Positions 31,462 to 36,243 of a stretch of DNA of 55,026 nucleotides are shown piece by piece. Under the pieces are notes generated by a model. It was given only the letters and a program-made list of their open reading frames with translations. It ran no database searches and was not told where the DNA came from. This stretch comes from an uncultured Bacilli bacterium (GTDB lineage Bacteria > Bacillota_I > Bacilli_A > RF39 > UBA660), in contig CANQHF010000006.1 of assembly GCA_947623685.1 (NCBI GenBank), positions 1 through 55,026 on the forward strand, read 5' to 3'. Within the stretch, counting starts at the first letter, position 1; each line of letters starts with the position of its first letter. The position numbers and the translations under genes were made by a program.

Positions 31462-32145
31462 TTAATCATCCATTAATACGTTATTTATTACGTAACTTGC
31501 TAATAAAATGCCCGCAGCATTTGGTACGGTTGCAATTGATCCAACCGATTCATTTGTTTTTAATAATGGTAATTCATTAGAACATACAACGGGTAATTTA
31601 TAACTTATTTTTTCCTTTTTTAATTCATGTCTTACTTTTTTTGCTAAAGGATCATTTTTTGTTTTCCAAATGTTTGTTATTTCAAGTTTATCCGGTTTTA
31701 TTCTATTACCCATACCGCAACTGGATATTATTTTTATATTATTACGTAAAGCATATTTAACCATTTCTATTTTAGCTTTAACATCGTCACAGGCATCTAT
31801 TATATAATCGACATTATAATTAATGTCATTAAGTATTTTTACACTTAATTTATCATTAATTATTGTTACGTTACAATTAGGATTAATATCTAGAATCCTT
31901 GTTTTTGCTACTTCTACTTTACTTTCATTTAAGTTACTTCTTAAACTTAAGATTTGTCTATTTAAATTACTTTCTTCAAACGTATCATAATCAACTATTA
32001 TTATGTTATTAACACCAGTTCTAACTAACATTTCAAGGGCTGATGCTCCAACCCCACCAATACCAACGATTAAAACCCTTAAATTACGAATTTTATTAAA
32101 TTTATCATCACTAATAATCTTTGTTATCCTTGAATACTCATTCAT
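31462..32145 (-). CDS. tcdA: ThiF-family tRNA threonylcarbamoyladenosine dehydratase
   Basis: GIGGVG, SNLNRQ, IIDACD, DPLAK. Confidence 0.88.
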   Translation of the reverse strand: MNEYSRITKIISDDKFNKIRNLRVLIVGIGGVGASALEMLVRTGVNNIIIVDYDTFEESNLNRQILSLRSNLNESKVEVAKTRILDINPNCNVTIINDKLSVKILNDINYNVDYIIDACDDVKAKIEMVKYALRNNIKIISSCGMGNRIKPDKLEITNIWKTKNDPLAKKVRHELKKEKISYKLPVVCSNELPLLKTNESVGSIATVPNAAGILLASYVINNVLMDD

Positions 32146-32199
32146 ATAATCACCTAATAAAATTATATATTTTTTAATAAATTATTGCAATAAAAAAGA

Positions 32200-32364
32200 C
32201 CCAATGGGTCGATTACTAGCAAAATAAACCTGCAGTTTTGCAGGTGGGCATCCCACAATGATTTTAGACTTCTTAATATAATTAAGCATGAACACCATCA
32301 CTGATTCTGATTCCCTTTAATAAGTTAGCGGGTTAAATATGCTAGCTTTCGATACCACCAGGCA
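32200..32364 (-). ncRNA. ssrS: 6S RNA
   Basis: Minus strand has Firmicute 6S-like long pairing (GCUAGC..UUUAACCCGC / CCCACCUGC..GCAGGUUUA..GCUAGU); extended -10 TGGTATAAT upstream; GACCCA/TGGGTC + T-run terminator; lies between aspS and tcdA as does B. subtilis bsrA; ends approximate. Confidence 0.85.
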
Positions 32365-32422
32365 ATTATATTATACCATTACAGATGATATTTATACAAT
32401 ATTTAAAACAAATGGTTTACAC

Positions 32423-33070
32423 TTATTCACCAAAACTTGATATAAAATCTTGTATTACTTTAATTATTTTTATAAAACTACTTTCATCATTTAAAATGTC
32501 TAGTTTTTTATCATTTATAACGATTCTAATTGCTGGAATATTACACAAAAGCGATGAAACAGTTATTATTTCATTTTCTTTTTCTTTATTTGGAACGTTA
32601 TTTTCATCTATTTTAACATTATAGCTTAATCCTATCTTTTTTATTTTGTCAATTAATACATCATTACCCCTTAAAGTTTGTCTATTATTTGTTACGATAT
32701 CAATATCCGTATCATCTTTAAAAGTACTAGAATGAATGTCAATTAATACTTTTATGTTATATGCGTTAATTAAGTTAATAACTGCGTTTTTATAATCATT
32801 TTCTAAATCAGTATTAGGGTCAGCGTGGGTAAATAACTCAAATATTGCATATGAGCTCGTTACGTTTGCTAAATATCTAACAACTGCACCAGTGTATTTT
32901 TCAGCATCCCTTACGTCATCACCACGAATTTGATTTACAGAATGAGGAGAAGATAATAAAACTGGAAGATTACCACTTAATACACGGTATTTTTCCTCCG
33001 TCCATACGTTGGTACCAAAATACTCATTATTAGCAAAATCAGATTCTAAAGCTAATATTAAGTCTTTCAT
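32423..33070 (-). CDS. N-formylglutamate amidohydrolase-like / Zn-dependent hydrolase fold protein
   Basis: LLSSPHS and LIDIHS motifs; RBS AGGAAGTG. Confidence 0.55.
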   Translation of the reverse strand: MKDLILALESDFANNEYFGTNVWTEEKYRVLSGNLPVLLSSPHSVNQIRGDDVRDAEKYTGAVVRYLANVTSSYAIFELFTHADPNTDLENDYKNAVINLINAYNIKVLIDIHSSTFKDDTDIDIVTNNRQTLRGNDVLIDKIKKIGLSYNVKIDENNVPNKEKENEIITVSSLLCNIPAIRIVINDKKLDILNDESSFIKIIKVIQDFISSFGE

Positions 33071-33096
33071 ATTATCACTTCCTCGTATAATATATT

Positions 33097-33385
33097 TTGT
33101 AAGTTATTTTAACTTACAATTTAATATTCTTTCTAGTTAGTTTTTTAACTAACAAATTTATTTATTGGCTAGGATACTCTAGTGTTAAAATATTATTGAA
33201 ATATTTTTGACTTAGACTTATTCATTCACATCCTGTAACCCTTTATGGTGTTTACTCAGAAAGACTGTTTCTCTTCTTATTAGTCATATTTCTTCTAACT
33301 CAGATGCTGTTTCTATTTTCTTATTAGTTCGCAGTATCCAAATCCCTAATAGAAAATATGTATTCTAATAACGAGGTTGTCGTAA
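33097..33385 (+). ncRNA. Predicted IS110 bridge RNA
   Basis: LTG TCACATCCT (33226-33234) vs target TCACTTCCT; RTG AAAG (33260-33263) = rc of CTTT; LDG CAGATG(CT) (33301-33308) vs donor CAGATGTCT; RDG ACGAG (33371-33375) = rc of donor CTCGT; each guide pair brackets an internal stem; RNA ends approximate. Confidence 0.8.
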
Positions 33386-33453
33386 GCTAGTAAGCTAGAG
33401 TTGTCGTTGCCAATTTTATTTCACAAAATTTAATTTGAAAGGTGGTGTTATTT

Positions 33454-34734
33454 ATGATTAATTCTTTGTTTATTGGTGTTGATGTTTCACTCCAATCTAA
33501 TCAAATTTGTGTTATGAATTTTGATCAACATAAGTTCTTTAATTTGAAATTTCCTAATACTCCGGATGGTTGTGAAGATGCAATTAATAGAATTAAAAAT
33601 ATTCATGATAAATTCTATTTTGATAAACTTGTGGTTGTTTGTGAAGCCACTGGCATGTATTCTTTTCATTTAGCTTGTTATTTTTCATCACATGAATATC
33701 TTAATAACTTCAATACTGAAGTTTATCAAATTAATGCTCATGACTTTGCTAAATATAAAGATTCATTTAACAATCTTGAAAAGACTGATCATTCTGATGC
33801 TTATATTCTTGCCGACTTTGCGAGAGTCGGTAGAACTAAACCTCTTCATCCTTTTCGTGGTTCTCAATACATTGCTCTTCAACGTTTAACCAGACAAAGA
33901 TATCATATTTCTAAAAATCTTGTTAAAGAAAAACTTTATGTTATGAATAACATTTATTTATCTTTTTCAGGATTGATTATTGCTGACAAGAAGAATAAAC
34001 CTTTTTCTAATATGTTCGGGGCTTCTTCTTGCGCTATTTTTGATAACTTTGACTCTCCAGATCAAATTGCTGAAACCTCTGTTGATGATTTGTTGGATTT
34101 AATTTCTAAAGTTGGGAAAAATCGAACTAAAAACCCAAATGAGAAGATTGTTTTACTTAAAAAAGCTATCAATTCTTCTTATCGATTAGATCAAACTGCC
34201 TATAACGGTATTAATATTGCTGTCGCTTCTTCTTTAAGTACTATTAGATTTTTAGAAAATGAACTTAAACAAGTTGATAAAGCTATTTTAGATACTGTTA
34301 GAGGGTTAAATTCTAATGCTTATAATTCTTTACTTTCTATTCGTGGTATTGGTAAAGTTTATGCTGCTGGTATTTTAGCTGAAATTGGTAATATTAATTA
34401 TTTTAAACATAATTCCAATTTGGCTAAATATGCAGGTCTTTACTGGAATAGAACTCAATCAGGTAAATTTGAAAAAGAAGATAAAAAGTTTTCTCAACAT
34501 GCAAACAAATATCTTCGTTATTACCTAATTGAAGCCACTGCTTCTTGTGTTAGAATGAATTTTCCTTTTATCAAGAATTTTTATGATTCTAAATTTAAGG
34601 AAGTTACTAAACATCAACATAAACGTGCACTCGTTTTATCTGCTCGTAAACTTGTTCGATTGATTTTTGGATTACTGCGAAAAAATCAATATTACAGTCC
34701 TATAAACTCGAATACTCAATCTTTAATAAACTGA
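33454..34734 (+). CDS. IS110 family DEDD transposase/recombinase
   Basis: RuvC-like DEDD (IGVDVS, CEATG, KTDHSDA) and Transposase_20 domain (GIG, AEIG, YAGL, QSG catalytic Ser); ATG 33454 behind GAAAGGTGG. Confidence 0.95.
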   Translation: MINSLFIGVDVSLQSNQICVMNFDQHKFFNLKFPNTPDGCEDAINRIKNIHDKFYFDKLVVVCEATGMYSFHLACYFSSHEYLNNFNTEVYQINAHDFAKYKDSFNNLEKTDHSDAYILADFARVGRTKPLHPFRGSQYIALQRLTRQRYHISKNLVKEKLYVMNNIYLSFSGLIIADKKNKPFSNMFGASSCAIFDNFDSPDQIAETSVDDLLDLISKVGKNRTKNPNEKIVLLKKAINSSYRLDQTAYNGINIAVASSLSTIRFLENELKQVDKAILDTVRGLNSNAYNSLLSIRGIGKVYAAGILAEIGNINYFKHNSNLAKYAGLYWNRTQSGKFEKEDKKFSQHANKYLRYYLIEATASCVRMNFPFIKNFYDSKFKEVTKHQHKRALVLSARKLVRLIFGLLRKNQYYSPINSNTQSLIN

Positions 34735-34878
34735 GTTCGTTGTTATAGCGAACTAATGTTTAGTTTCTAACTAAGCACTTTTTAGCATGCAATAATTTAT
34801 TTGATAAGGGAGAAATTATTTAAAAACTTCCATAACCTTTATCTTGACATATTACCAGATGTCTTTTATTCTAAAATA

Positions 34879-34907
34879 ATTATATATTATTTTAAAGCAA
34901 AACACAA
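34879..34907 (-). promoter_or_regulatory. Orphaned sigma-A promoter of gene 32423-33070, now pointing into the IS110 right end
   Basis: Minus strand TTGTGT(34902-34907)-17-TATAAT(34879-34884), downstream of the aspS terminator. Confidence 0.65.
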
Positions 34908-34914
34908 TAGAATA

Positions 34915-34943
34915 AAAAAGCATATTTTTTAAAATATGCTTTT
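34915..34943 (-). terminator. aspS terminator
   Basis: AAAAAGCATATTT-TTTA-AAATATGCTTTT. Confidence 0.7.
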
Positions 34944-36243
34944 AAGGAGTAATTCTATTTGGTCCCCTAAATATAAACATTGTTTCTTTAAGTGATGGAA
35001 GACCTAGTAATAACATGGTTAATCTATCTATTCCAAGACCAAATCCACCGTGTGGTGGGCAACCATATTTAAAAAAGTTTTTATAAAACTTAATGTCATC
35101 ACCTAAGTTTTTCTCTTTAGCTTGCTTTTCTAAAACATCATATCTATGTTCTCTTTGAGCTCCTGTTGTTAATTCAGTTCCCTTCCATATTAAATCATAA
35201 CCCTGTGGGATATCATCCTTTCTCATATGATAAAATGCCCTTTTTGTTTTATTAAAATCAGTTACAAATATAAATTCATGACCATACTTTTCCATTGCAA
35301 AACGACTAGTAAGCTTTTCGGTTTCAGCGTTCATATCACCAACGTCATGACTAGGTATTTCATAGCCGTATCTTTCATTTAACTCTTTATATAAATCTTG
35401 TAATTTAATTTTTGGGAAAGGTGTTTTTGGAACTACTACGTCTACACCATATAATTTTTTTATTAAATCCCCATATTTTTCTTTAACAGCAGTAAGTCCT
35501 GCAACTAAAAGTTCTTCTTCTAATTTCATAACGTCTTCATAAGAATTAATATTTGCAAACTCTACGTCAAAAGATGTAAATTCAGTTGCATGTCTATTAG
35601 TATTTGAATTTTCCGCACGAAACGCAGGCGCTACTTCAAATACTTTTTCATATCCCGCTGCAATTGCCATTTGCTTATAAAATTGTGGTGACTGTGCTAA
35701 ATATGCTTTATTATTAAAATAGTTTACTTCAAATACTTCACTACCTGATTCTGATGCGGTACCAATTAATTTTGGAGTATGAATTTCAACAAAATCATTA
35801 TCATATAAATACTTTCTCATTGCTCTTACAAATTCACTTTGGATCTTAAATATATAAAAATTAAAATCATTTCTTAAATCAATAAATCTATTATCCATTC
35901 TAGTATCGATTAAAGCAGCATCTTTATCGGTAATACTAATAGGTAATTCTGGTGCGGATAAACTAGTTACTTCAATTTTACTAGGAATTATTTCAATTCC
36001 ACCCATTTTAACTTTGTCATTTTCTTTTAATACACCAGTTACCTTAATCGTTGACTCATTAGTTAAATTATTAACTAATTCAATCATTTCCTTATTTTTT
36101 TCATAAGATTTTTCTATTGTTATTTGAACTCTATTTGCATCATTTCTAAGGACAATAAACTGTACCCATTGAAGGTTTCTTACTTTTTCTGCAAAACCAG
36201 ATATTGTTATTTCCTTATTAACGCATTTTTTAAAATCTATCAT
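34942..36243 (-). CDS. aspS: Aspartyl-tRNA synthetase, short archaeal-type (probably non-discriminating Asp/Asn)
   Basis: 433 aa with no GAD insertion; LAQSPQFYKQ, FRAENSNTNRH, GAQREH, YGCPPHGGFGLG. Confidence 0.9.
   Translation of the reverse strand: MIDFKKCVNKEITISGFAEKVRNLQWVQFIVLRNDANRVQITIEKSYEKNKEMIELVNNLTNESTIKVTGVLKENDKVKMGGIEIIPSKIEVTSLSAPELPISITDKDAALIDTRMDNRFIDLRNDFNFYIFKIQSEFVRAMRKYLYDNDFVEIHTPKLIGTASESGSEVFEVNYFNNKAYLAQSPQFYKQMAIAAGYEKVFEVAPAFRAENSNTNRHATEFTSFDVEFANINSYEDVMKLEEELLVAGLTAVKEKYGDLIKKLYGVDVVVPKTPFPKIKLQDLYKELNERYGYEIPSHDVGDMNAETEKLTSRFAMEKYGHEFIFVTDFNKTKRAFYHMRKDDIPQGYDLIWKGTELTTGAQREHRYDVLEKQAKEKNLGDDIKFYKNFFKYGCPPHGGFGLGIDRLTMLLLGLPSLKETMFIFRGPNRITP

Follow-up and report, generated by a model that had tools for sequence, protein, structure and literature searches.

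An IS110-group insertion sequence with a probable promoter split between its ends, docked at the Shine-Dalgarno edge of a gene in an uncultured Bacilli bacterium

Would an insertion sequence (IS) whose two ends each carry half of a promoter assemble that promoter on circularisation, and what sets the place where it lands? These questions are raised by a 1781-bp IS110-group insertion sequence at positions 33084..34864 (+), right-hand CT core included, of a 55,026-nucleotide (nt) stretch of DNA from an uncultured Bacilli bacterium (assembly GCA_947623685.1, contig CANQHF010000006.1, positions 1 to 55,026), which we analysed as a whole and call the window. The host genome comprises 1.24 Mb in 65 contigs, and the window has a GC content of 26%. 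Our analysis indicates that this is very probably an intact element guided by a bridge RNA, which integrates at a CT core and whose promoter stays split until a circle forms.

The right end of the element carries the -35 half of the junction promoter, TTGACA, as read in the sequence (34844..34849, +). The right IS terminus follows (34850..34864, +), composed of a 13-nt left donor (TATTACCAGATGT, 34850-34862) and the CT core (34863-34864). The -10 half, TATAAT, lies at the opposite end of the element (33086..33091, +), preceded by CG at 33084-33085. Joined through one CT, the two hexamers are separated by 13+2+2 = 17 nt, and every base of the TTGACA-17-TATAAT site is as described in the original prediction. 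Because the window holds two perfect TTGACA-N17-TATAAT sites on both strands against 0.04 expected (100 shuffles), chance is very unlikely to have placed a perfect site across the junction in one fixed register. The circular form of a bridge-RNA element is known to rebuild a sigma-70 promoter across the core (PMC11208160), a junction promoter is active in a few IS1111/IS110 elements (PMC11187229), and the bridge RNA of integrated IS621 is expressed weakly (PMC13626964).

We compared the element with relatives from two sources. Scans of genome and metagenome collections yielded 17 loci. Protein identity is 88-94% in 12 of these, 67% in one and 47-48% in two, and the remaining two (L044 and L045), weak partial protein matches (26-28%), were left out. 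A search of 400 scored genomes of the same class added 20 loci in 15 genomes at 35-47% identity. L053, with both ends off the contig, and L057, which is 5'-truncated and adjoins other DNA, were also left out of the counts. Altogether 34 loci were tabulated for the promoter halves; these are partly non-independent, with the same insertion present in two databases and several copies per genome. The closest known relatives of the IS are 90-93% identical in DNA, and no identical second copy is known. In a plasmid search, 523 records matched at E <= 1e-40, all below 60% identity, and relatives are common on Enterococcus and Bacillus plasmids.

TATAAT is present in all 34 tabulated loci, and a right end with CT at the expected place in 30 of them; three of the others (L030, L032 and L038) have TTGACA with aberrant ends, and L060 has no right end within the locus. 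The -35 hexamer in those 30 loci is TTGACA (24 loci), TTGACT (five) or TTGATT (one), and the spacing is 17 nt in every case. The 13 nt between the -35 hexamer and the CT core occur in 13 versions, which is a fairer count of lineages than the 30 loci, and the junction promoter is kept down to 35% protein identity. Hexamers and length held while the intervening sequence drifts is the pattern that a promoter would be expected to leave.

The ends of the element are equally constant. The left junction reads ...YCCT/CGTATAAT (the slash marks the boundary) in every readable copy except L054, which has CTCT, and the right end reads TTGAC(A/T)-13 nt-CT/ in every copy with a complete right end. CT stands at the right terminus in 30/30 loci with a complete right end and closes all 30 left flanks tabulated, and the flanks of independent copies with identical ends and CT core are unrelated to each other. 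In the window, the left flank ends in ...CACTTCCT, with the left-side core copy at 33082-33083, and the right flank starts with TTTATTCT directly after the right-side core copy at 34863-34864. No target duplication is visible beyond the shared CT, a single CT being present at each junction, as expected for a core common to donor and target (PMC11208160). No terminal inverted repeat was found between the left start (CGTATAATAT) and the reverse complement of the right end, which begins with AGACATCTGG. The exact ends and CT core proposed in the original prediction therefore recur in independent copies with unrelated flanks; where it had pointed to different boundaries or a target duplication as evidence against it, the copies with complete ends showed the same ends and no duplication beyond the CT.

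The left target half of the site (33071..33083, -) comprises the 13 nt from the IS boundary to the ATG (33070-33068) of a gene for a 215-aa protein and reads, in the sense of that gene, AGGAAGTGATAAT, i.e. a Shine-Dalgarno (SD) sequence and spacer. The right target half, TTTATTCT (34865..34872, +), is the former 5' untranslated region of the same gene. The flanking DNA was found in 24/24 congeners sampled. The 215-aa gene directly neighbours the AspRS gene in 18 congener loci, none of which holds the IS; the comparison with related genomes suggested beforehand does reveal sites without the element. The intergenic region measures 77-258 nt in 11 of these 18 loci and 366-1257 nt, with other inserted DNA, in seven. 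In L015, both window flanks abut at ...CTTCCT. Since the congener loci are 75-80% identical to the window, the insertion point after ...CTTCCT is placed within a few bases and not to the base; the proposed empty-site string fits the congeners to that precision, and falls short of an exact match. When IS DNA was searched for in 38 genomes of the genus, the whole element was found in the host genome only.

Downstream of the left boundary we placed all four guide segments of a putative bridge RNA, applying the published rule that a left guide reads like the top strand and a right guide like its reverse complement (PMC11208160). A 5' stem-loop (33098..33118, +) is backed by compensatory changes in alignment A1 (pairs 20-32, 21-31 and 22-30). 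Its first base lies 7 nt past the -10 hexamer, and a transcript from the junction promoter would be predicted to start there. The left target guide, ATTCACATCCT (33224..33234, +), forms the 5' strand of the target-binding loop, ends in the core CU, and is the sole hypervariable stretch among copies that are otherwise about 90% identical. These guides match their own flank at a mean of 8.0 of 11 positions versus 6.3 for other flanks (12 pairs, permutation p = 2e-5; p = 2.8e-4 with wobble allowed; p = 0.004 within nine close copies). The distal stem-loop of the target-binding loop (33235..33255, +) is closed by GTAAC...GTTTAC, replaced by GCAC...GTGC in the 47% relatives. It is followed by the right target guide and handshake dinucleotide (33256..33265, +), in which AAAG occupies 33260-33263 and AC 33264-33265; their reverse complement, GTCTTT, is the right junction. 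The handshake dinucleotide (AC, UC or CC) co-varies with the last bases of the right end (GT, GA or GG, donor positions 6-7), and handshake guides have been described for IS621 (PMC11208158).

The donor-binding loop could be placed in the same way. The left donor guide, CTCAGATGCTG (33299..33309, +), has the sense of the right terminus CCAGATG(T)CT and tracks the right end through six variants (CAGATG, CGGATG, CAGAAG, CCGGTTG, CGGAAG and CACAAG). The right donor guide with a handshake G, TAATAACGAGG (33366..33376, +), reads ...ACGAGG, whose reverse complement CCTCGT equals the left junction. An invariant GG that follows ACGAG would read target positions 6-7, in keeping with the Y-C found before every core. 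The guide segments at the left end match both donor and target, and in this respect the promoter does point into an RNA, as had been claimed. In constrained folds of the 47% relatives, a basal stem leads to an internal loop carrying two guides and on to a distal stem-loop, and this unit occurs twice; the two-loop fold is clean only in these GC-richer relatives and less clean for the AT-rich window copy. Unconstrained RNAalifold on 12 left ends did not yield the two-loop architecture, the donor guide being paired with other sequence.

The recombinase gene (33454..34734, +) encodes 426 aa, ends in TGA and starts with an ATG behind the SD-like AGGTGGTG at 33440-33447. The protein matches the Pfam families DEDD_Tnp_IS110 (PF01548, 1.4e-22, residues 7-160) and Transposase_20 (PF02371, 3e-19, residues 292-377) as well as the NCBIfam model NF033542, annotated as IS110 family RNA-guided transposase (208.6 bits, cutoff 140). 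Comparison against solved structures aligned D10, E64, D112, D115 and S295 with D11, E60, D102, D105 and S241 of IS621, for which catalytic residue numbers and roles are published (PMC11208158). The motifs are GVD10VS, CE64ATG, KTD112HSD115A and S295IRGIG, versus YIGIDTA, IEATG, KTDTVDA and SIPGIG in IS621. The intact open reading frame (ORF) with DEDD and Ser residues noted in the original prediction is borne out by these matches and by the five aligned residues. A terminator-like hairpin (34734..34754, +) directly follows the stop codon. Non-coding DNA extends over 370 nt before the ATG and 130 nt after the stop, which is a layout of IS110 type; a long non-coding region lies upstream of the recombinase gene in the IS110 group and downstream in the IS1111 group (PMC11187229).

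Taken in sequence, these features suggest a cycle in which the strong promoter is split in the integrated state, with its -35 hexamer 15 nt from the right tip and its -10 hexamer 2 nt from the left tip. Excision as a circle would join the right end, one CT and the left end into TTGACA-17 nt-TATAAT. The transcript would then start with the opening base of the 5' stem-loop, cover the bridge RNA and probably extend into the recombinase gene. One loop of the RNA is predicted to pair with the joined ends as donor and the other with a target N(5-7)YCCT/TTT. Because this target is the complement of the SD sequence AAAGGRG, the element integrates at the 5' edge of an SD, with the recombinase gene diverging from the target gene, which keeps its SD and start codon.

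The flanks of the relatives agree with such a target. In each left flank a gene begins on the opposite strand, and read in the sense of that gene the flank is AGG(A/G)(G/A)...ATG. The neighbouring genes are mutually unrelated and encode a class II aminoacyl-tRNA synthetase, BipA, an ABC transporter, a PAP2 phosphatase, NanE, LexA, a DUF2207 protein and hypothetical proteins. At the 28 sites with a callable ORF, the distance from boundary to start codon is 13 nt (19 sites), 12 nt (eight) or 14 nt (one). Starts are ambiguous at L035 (TTG at 13, with the LexA profile matching from residue 1, and an in-frame ATG at 7), L049 (GTG at 12 or ATG at 9), L050 and L063 (alternative at 10), and L039 and L056 (short ORFs). 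Left out of this count were L030, L038 and L040, which are the same sites as L031 and L036, then L033, L047 and L052 with short flanks, and L058 and L062, which have CAT at 13 nt and no called ORF of at least 40 aa. At all 28 sites the insertion point is separated from the start codon by 12-14 nt and lies beyond the SD, not between SD and start codon.

This register is much tighter than SD geometry alone would give, and it is unexplained. In the host genome, AGGAG starts 10, 11, 12, 13, 14 and 15 nt from an ATG in 23, 34, 48, 56, 47 and 23 cases, against which 27 of 28 sites at 12 or 13 nt corresponds to a binomial probability of 2e-10, the sites not being fully independent. What is new here is that a Firmicutes clade always lands where the SD of a divergent gene begins on its 5' side, with 12-13 nt to the start codon at 27 of 28 sites; our search of the literature on IS110 and IS900 target sites, Shine-Dalgarno sequences and bridge RNA, supplementary tables aside, found no description of this target class. 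One may tentatively suppose that this is a large clade of Firmicutes IS110 elements with an anti-SD-like target loop, docking at the ribosome-binding site (RBS) of arbitrary genes, a class II aminoacyl-tRNA synthetase gene among them, at a fixed 12-13 nt from the start codon. As the guides do not reach the start codon, such a register would imply either an undescribed determinant that senses the start region or strong selection from taking over or preserving expression of the docked gene. An example of a sequence that might serve such a takeover is the invariant terminal CGTATAATA, whose opposite strand gives TATTAT 3 nt from the boundary. Recognition of the start codon by an extended target guide is contradicted by the constant bases 5' of the variable guide, which mismatch the CAT region. 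An outward promoter in the left end might keep target genes expressed; the family shows no such -35/-10 pair in conserved form on the minus strand.

In the window, the crossover keeps SD and ATG with the 215-aa gene and severs the gene from a promoter-like site (34879..34907, -), identified by consensus match. This site consists of TTGTGT (34907-34902), 17 nt and TATAAT (34884-34879), and the IS now parts it from the gene; a like arrangement, TTGTTT-17-TATAAT, is found in the intergenic sequences of congeners. No intrinsic terminator was predicted inside the IS on its minus strand, so that transcription from the native promoter could read through into the 215-aa gene. Just downstream of the 215-aa gene lies a 6S RNA gene (32194-32367, -; 75.9 bits, gathering score 46.4).

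A separate fragment also sits at a gene start. In a congener (genome G005, contig C2), locus L025 holds at positions 2077-2234 a solo 140-nt piece of the left end, 89% identical to window 33084-33224, with no recombinase nearby. It lies 13 nt before the ATG of a DUF2207 gene, provides the gene upstream with its final two codons and stop codon, and breaks off about 10 nt short of the target guide.

Several observations weigh against reading the locus as an intact, RNA-guided element with a working junction promoter. In an Rfam scan of 32000-36000 at E <= 1, no family was placed on the left end, and the only gathering-level match was the 6S RNA, outside the IS. TATAAT sits within the invariant right-donor sequence CGTATAATA and TTGACA adjoins the left donor; part of the conservation of the hexamers could serve recombination rather than transcription. 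The target guide of the window copy is imperfect for its present site, with one mismatch in the nine positions by the insertion point, core included, and when the guide alone was used to predict the site in the host genome, 28 CT sites outscored the real one, most of them not at gene starts. In L030, L032 and L038 and in one contig of run X5, the right end reads ...CCAGATG/CCAAAGACG and lacks T-CT. The element is present as a single copy in the host genome. Finally, among the pieces of contigs shown from four runs (X1, X5, X6 and X7) there was neither a joint between right and left end nor one that skips the IS; the data of all 20 runs listed are assembled contigs, which drop rare forms, so the absent junction says little either way.

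Circle formation, promoter firing, the ends of the transcript and continued movement of this copy are what we infer from the letters of the locus, and the same letters can be read in other ways. One is that the copy is dormant and fixed, intact by descent only and no longer moving. A single copy in a 65-contig assembly, nearest relatives at 90-93% DNA identity, run contigs with no circle or empty form among those shown, and the guide mismatch would all fit a stranded element. Against this, the ORF, catalytic residues, four guides and both promoter halves are intact, and related bacteria carry elements of this type, their target guides re-tuned, at no fewer than 10 different genes. Neither junction is bridged by a contig under the 31-letter rule, and the contigs of run X1 stop 26 nt inside each IS end; this break in the assembly graph suggests that the IS has more than one context in that sample. 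Runs X5-X7 carry IS variants without flanks, so that they offer no empty site from the same species. On balance, we consider dormancy rather unlikely.

A second possibility is that the right-end TTGACA acts mainly outward, in that, as long as the IS is integrated, it forms a hybrid promoter with a -10 that happens to lie in the flank and reads into neighbouring DNA. A promoter scan of the integrated state did detect TTGACA-17-TATTCT at the right end (34844-34872), scoring 10/12, and nothing at the left junction, and since target right halves are T-rich, -10-like hexamers may often follow. At other sites, however, the hexamer in this place is TTATTA, CATTAT, GTATAT, CTTATA, CAATTT or AATACA, with no conserved -10, and the transcript in the window would be antisense to the AspRS gene, entering it through its terminator and 3' end. 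Such activity as a main role is improbable, and it would in any case be compatible with the junction promoter.

That the hexamers are kept for recognition of the donor ends by recombinase and bridge RNA, their likeness to a promoter being incidental in AT-rich DNA, is the least credible of these alternatives and very improbable: CGTATAATA is indeed invariant, the right donor guide covers at least CTCGT, and TATTACC beside TTGACA is also kept in the close group, but both hexamers are perfect sigma-70 consensus at 17 nt in 30/30 loci despite 13 spacer versions, guide pairing in the left donor is confined to the 6-8 nt by the core and falls short of TTGACA, the 5' stem-loop of the bridge RNA starts 7 nt past the -10, and the same arrangement in IS621 drives a 177-nt RNA (PMC11208160). 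We retain the reading of an intact bridge-RNA-guided element whose promoter is split until circularisation.

Some copies depart from the common form. L036 and L040, one insertion in two collections, represent a defective copy with both ends intact and an internal deletion equivalent to window 33275-33772, which removes the donor-binding loop together with roughly the first 106 recombinase codons. In four runs, each from a different study, a single contig per run skips 84 nt of the recombinase gene (window 33763-33846; 93 nt on the shorter side). This gap preserves the reading frame and takes out residues 104-131, D112 and D115 among them; it would be a recurrent variant of the recombinase with a deleted catalytic site.

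Other departures concern the right end. The X5 contig has its loose end at 34861, and the aberrant right ends run on as CCAAAGACGTGC... in place of T-CT and target. In L030, L032 and L038 the same right-hand DNA follows two different left flanks, is GC-richer and contains an ORF reading into the IS end; it may stem from aberrant recombination, from a nested element or from chimeric assembly. The 5'-truncated relative L057 (genome G168, 2820-2850) has a right end of TTGACA-13 nt-CT followed by CGTATTCA. The sequence directly after this right end, CGTATTCATAAT, resembles a degenerate left-end start, and the locus may be a remnant of abutted ends or an insertion beside an old copy.

The element offers a clean natural example of a split promoter in bridge-RNA elements, from an uncultured low-GC gut bacterium, and its donor, target, handshake and promoter coordinates could go straight into a recombination assay. 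Copies about 90% identical with re-tuned target guides at different genes represent natural reprogramming of a bridge RNA. Docking at the RBS in a fixed register is the part worth follow-up: if the strict docking reflects recognition and not selection, it would point to a layer of specificity beyond RNA-DNA pairing.

Among known systems, the element resembles IS621 of Escherichia coli in its DEDD RuvC-like domain and Tnp domain with a catalytic Ser, its non-coding region upstream and its CT core (PMC11208160, PMC11208158). Shared with IS621 are also an RNA with a 5' stem-loop and target- and donor-binding loops, the same guide senses and handshake positions, and a -35 in the right end and -10 in the left end that are joined only in the circle. 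The two differ in that protein similarity is weak (phmmer E = 9e-9, two aligned stretches), the recombinase has 426 aa here versus 326, and the left end here spans about 370 nt, with about 100 nt of extra hairpins between 5' stem-loop and target loop. The targets differ as well, being the SD region here and a REP-type repeat for IS621.

As in ISEc21 (IS110 type) and ISEc11 (IS1111 type), the abutted ends of the circle would make a promoter, there named Pjunc (PMC11187229). In these two elements an RNA from the non-coding region (seekRNA) is needed for circle formation and insertion, with activity shown experimentally (PMC11187229). Insertion is orientation-specific and without duplication in all of them. 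Unlike the RBS sites described here, the targets of ISEc21 and ISEc11 are an IS3-family transposase codon region and GTGAAAATACTG.

Docking at translation-initiation signals in a fixed orientation is shared with IS900 and IS901, IS110-family elements of Mycobacterium avium that insert between the SD and the start codon (PMC2942039). The crossover here falls instead at the 5' edge of the SD and outside it, so that SD and ATG stay together. Unlike IS900, the window element has no long antisense ORF like hed, the longest ORF on its minus strand being 60 aa.

A counterpart in a cultured host is L067, an IS110-family element on the Enterococcus faecalis plasmid pEF-01 (NC_014508.2, 19.4-21.3 kb) with 39% protein identity. 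Its left side reads CAT + 13 nt/CGTATTAT..., its right end TTGACT-13 nt-CT, and the spacing across the junction is 17 nt. It differs from the window element in its -10, TATTAT, and in being plasmid-borne. L067, which we take to be ISEnfa5, lies about 1.6 kb from cfr, and the annotated start of a neighbouring methylase-domain gene falls inside the left end of the IS. The split-promoter design is already known for IS110 elements, and the predicted junction of the window element confirms it to the base.

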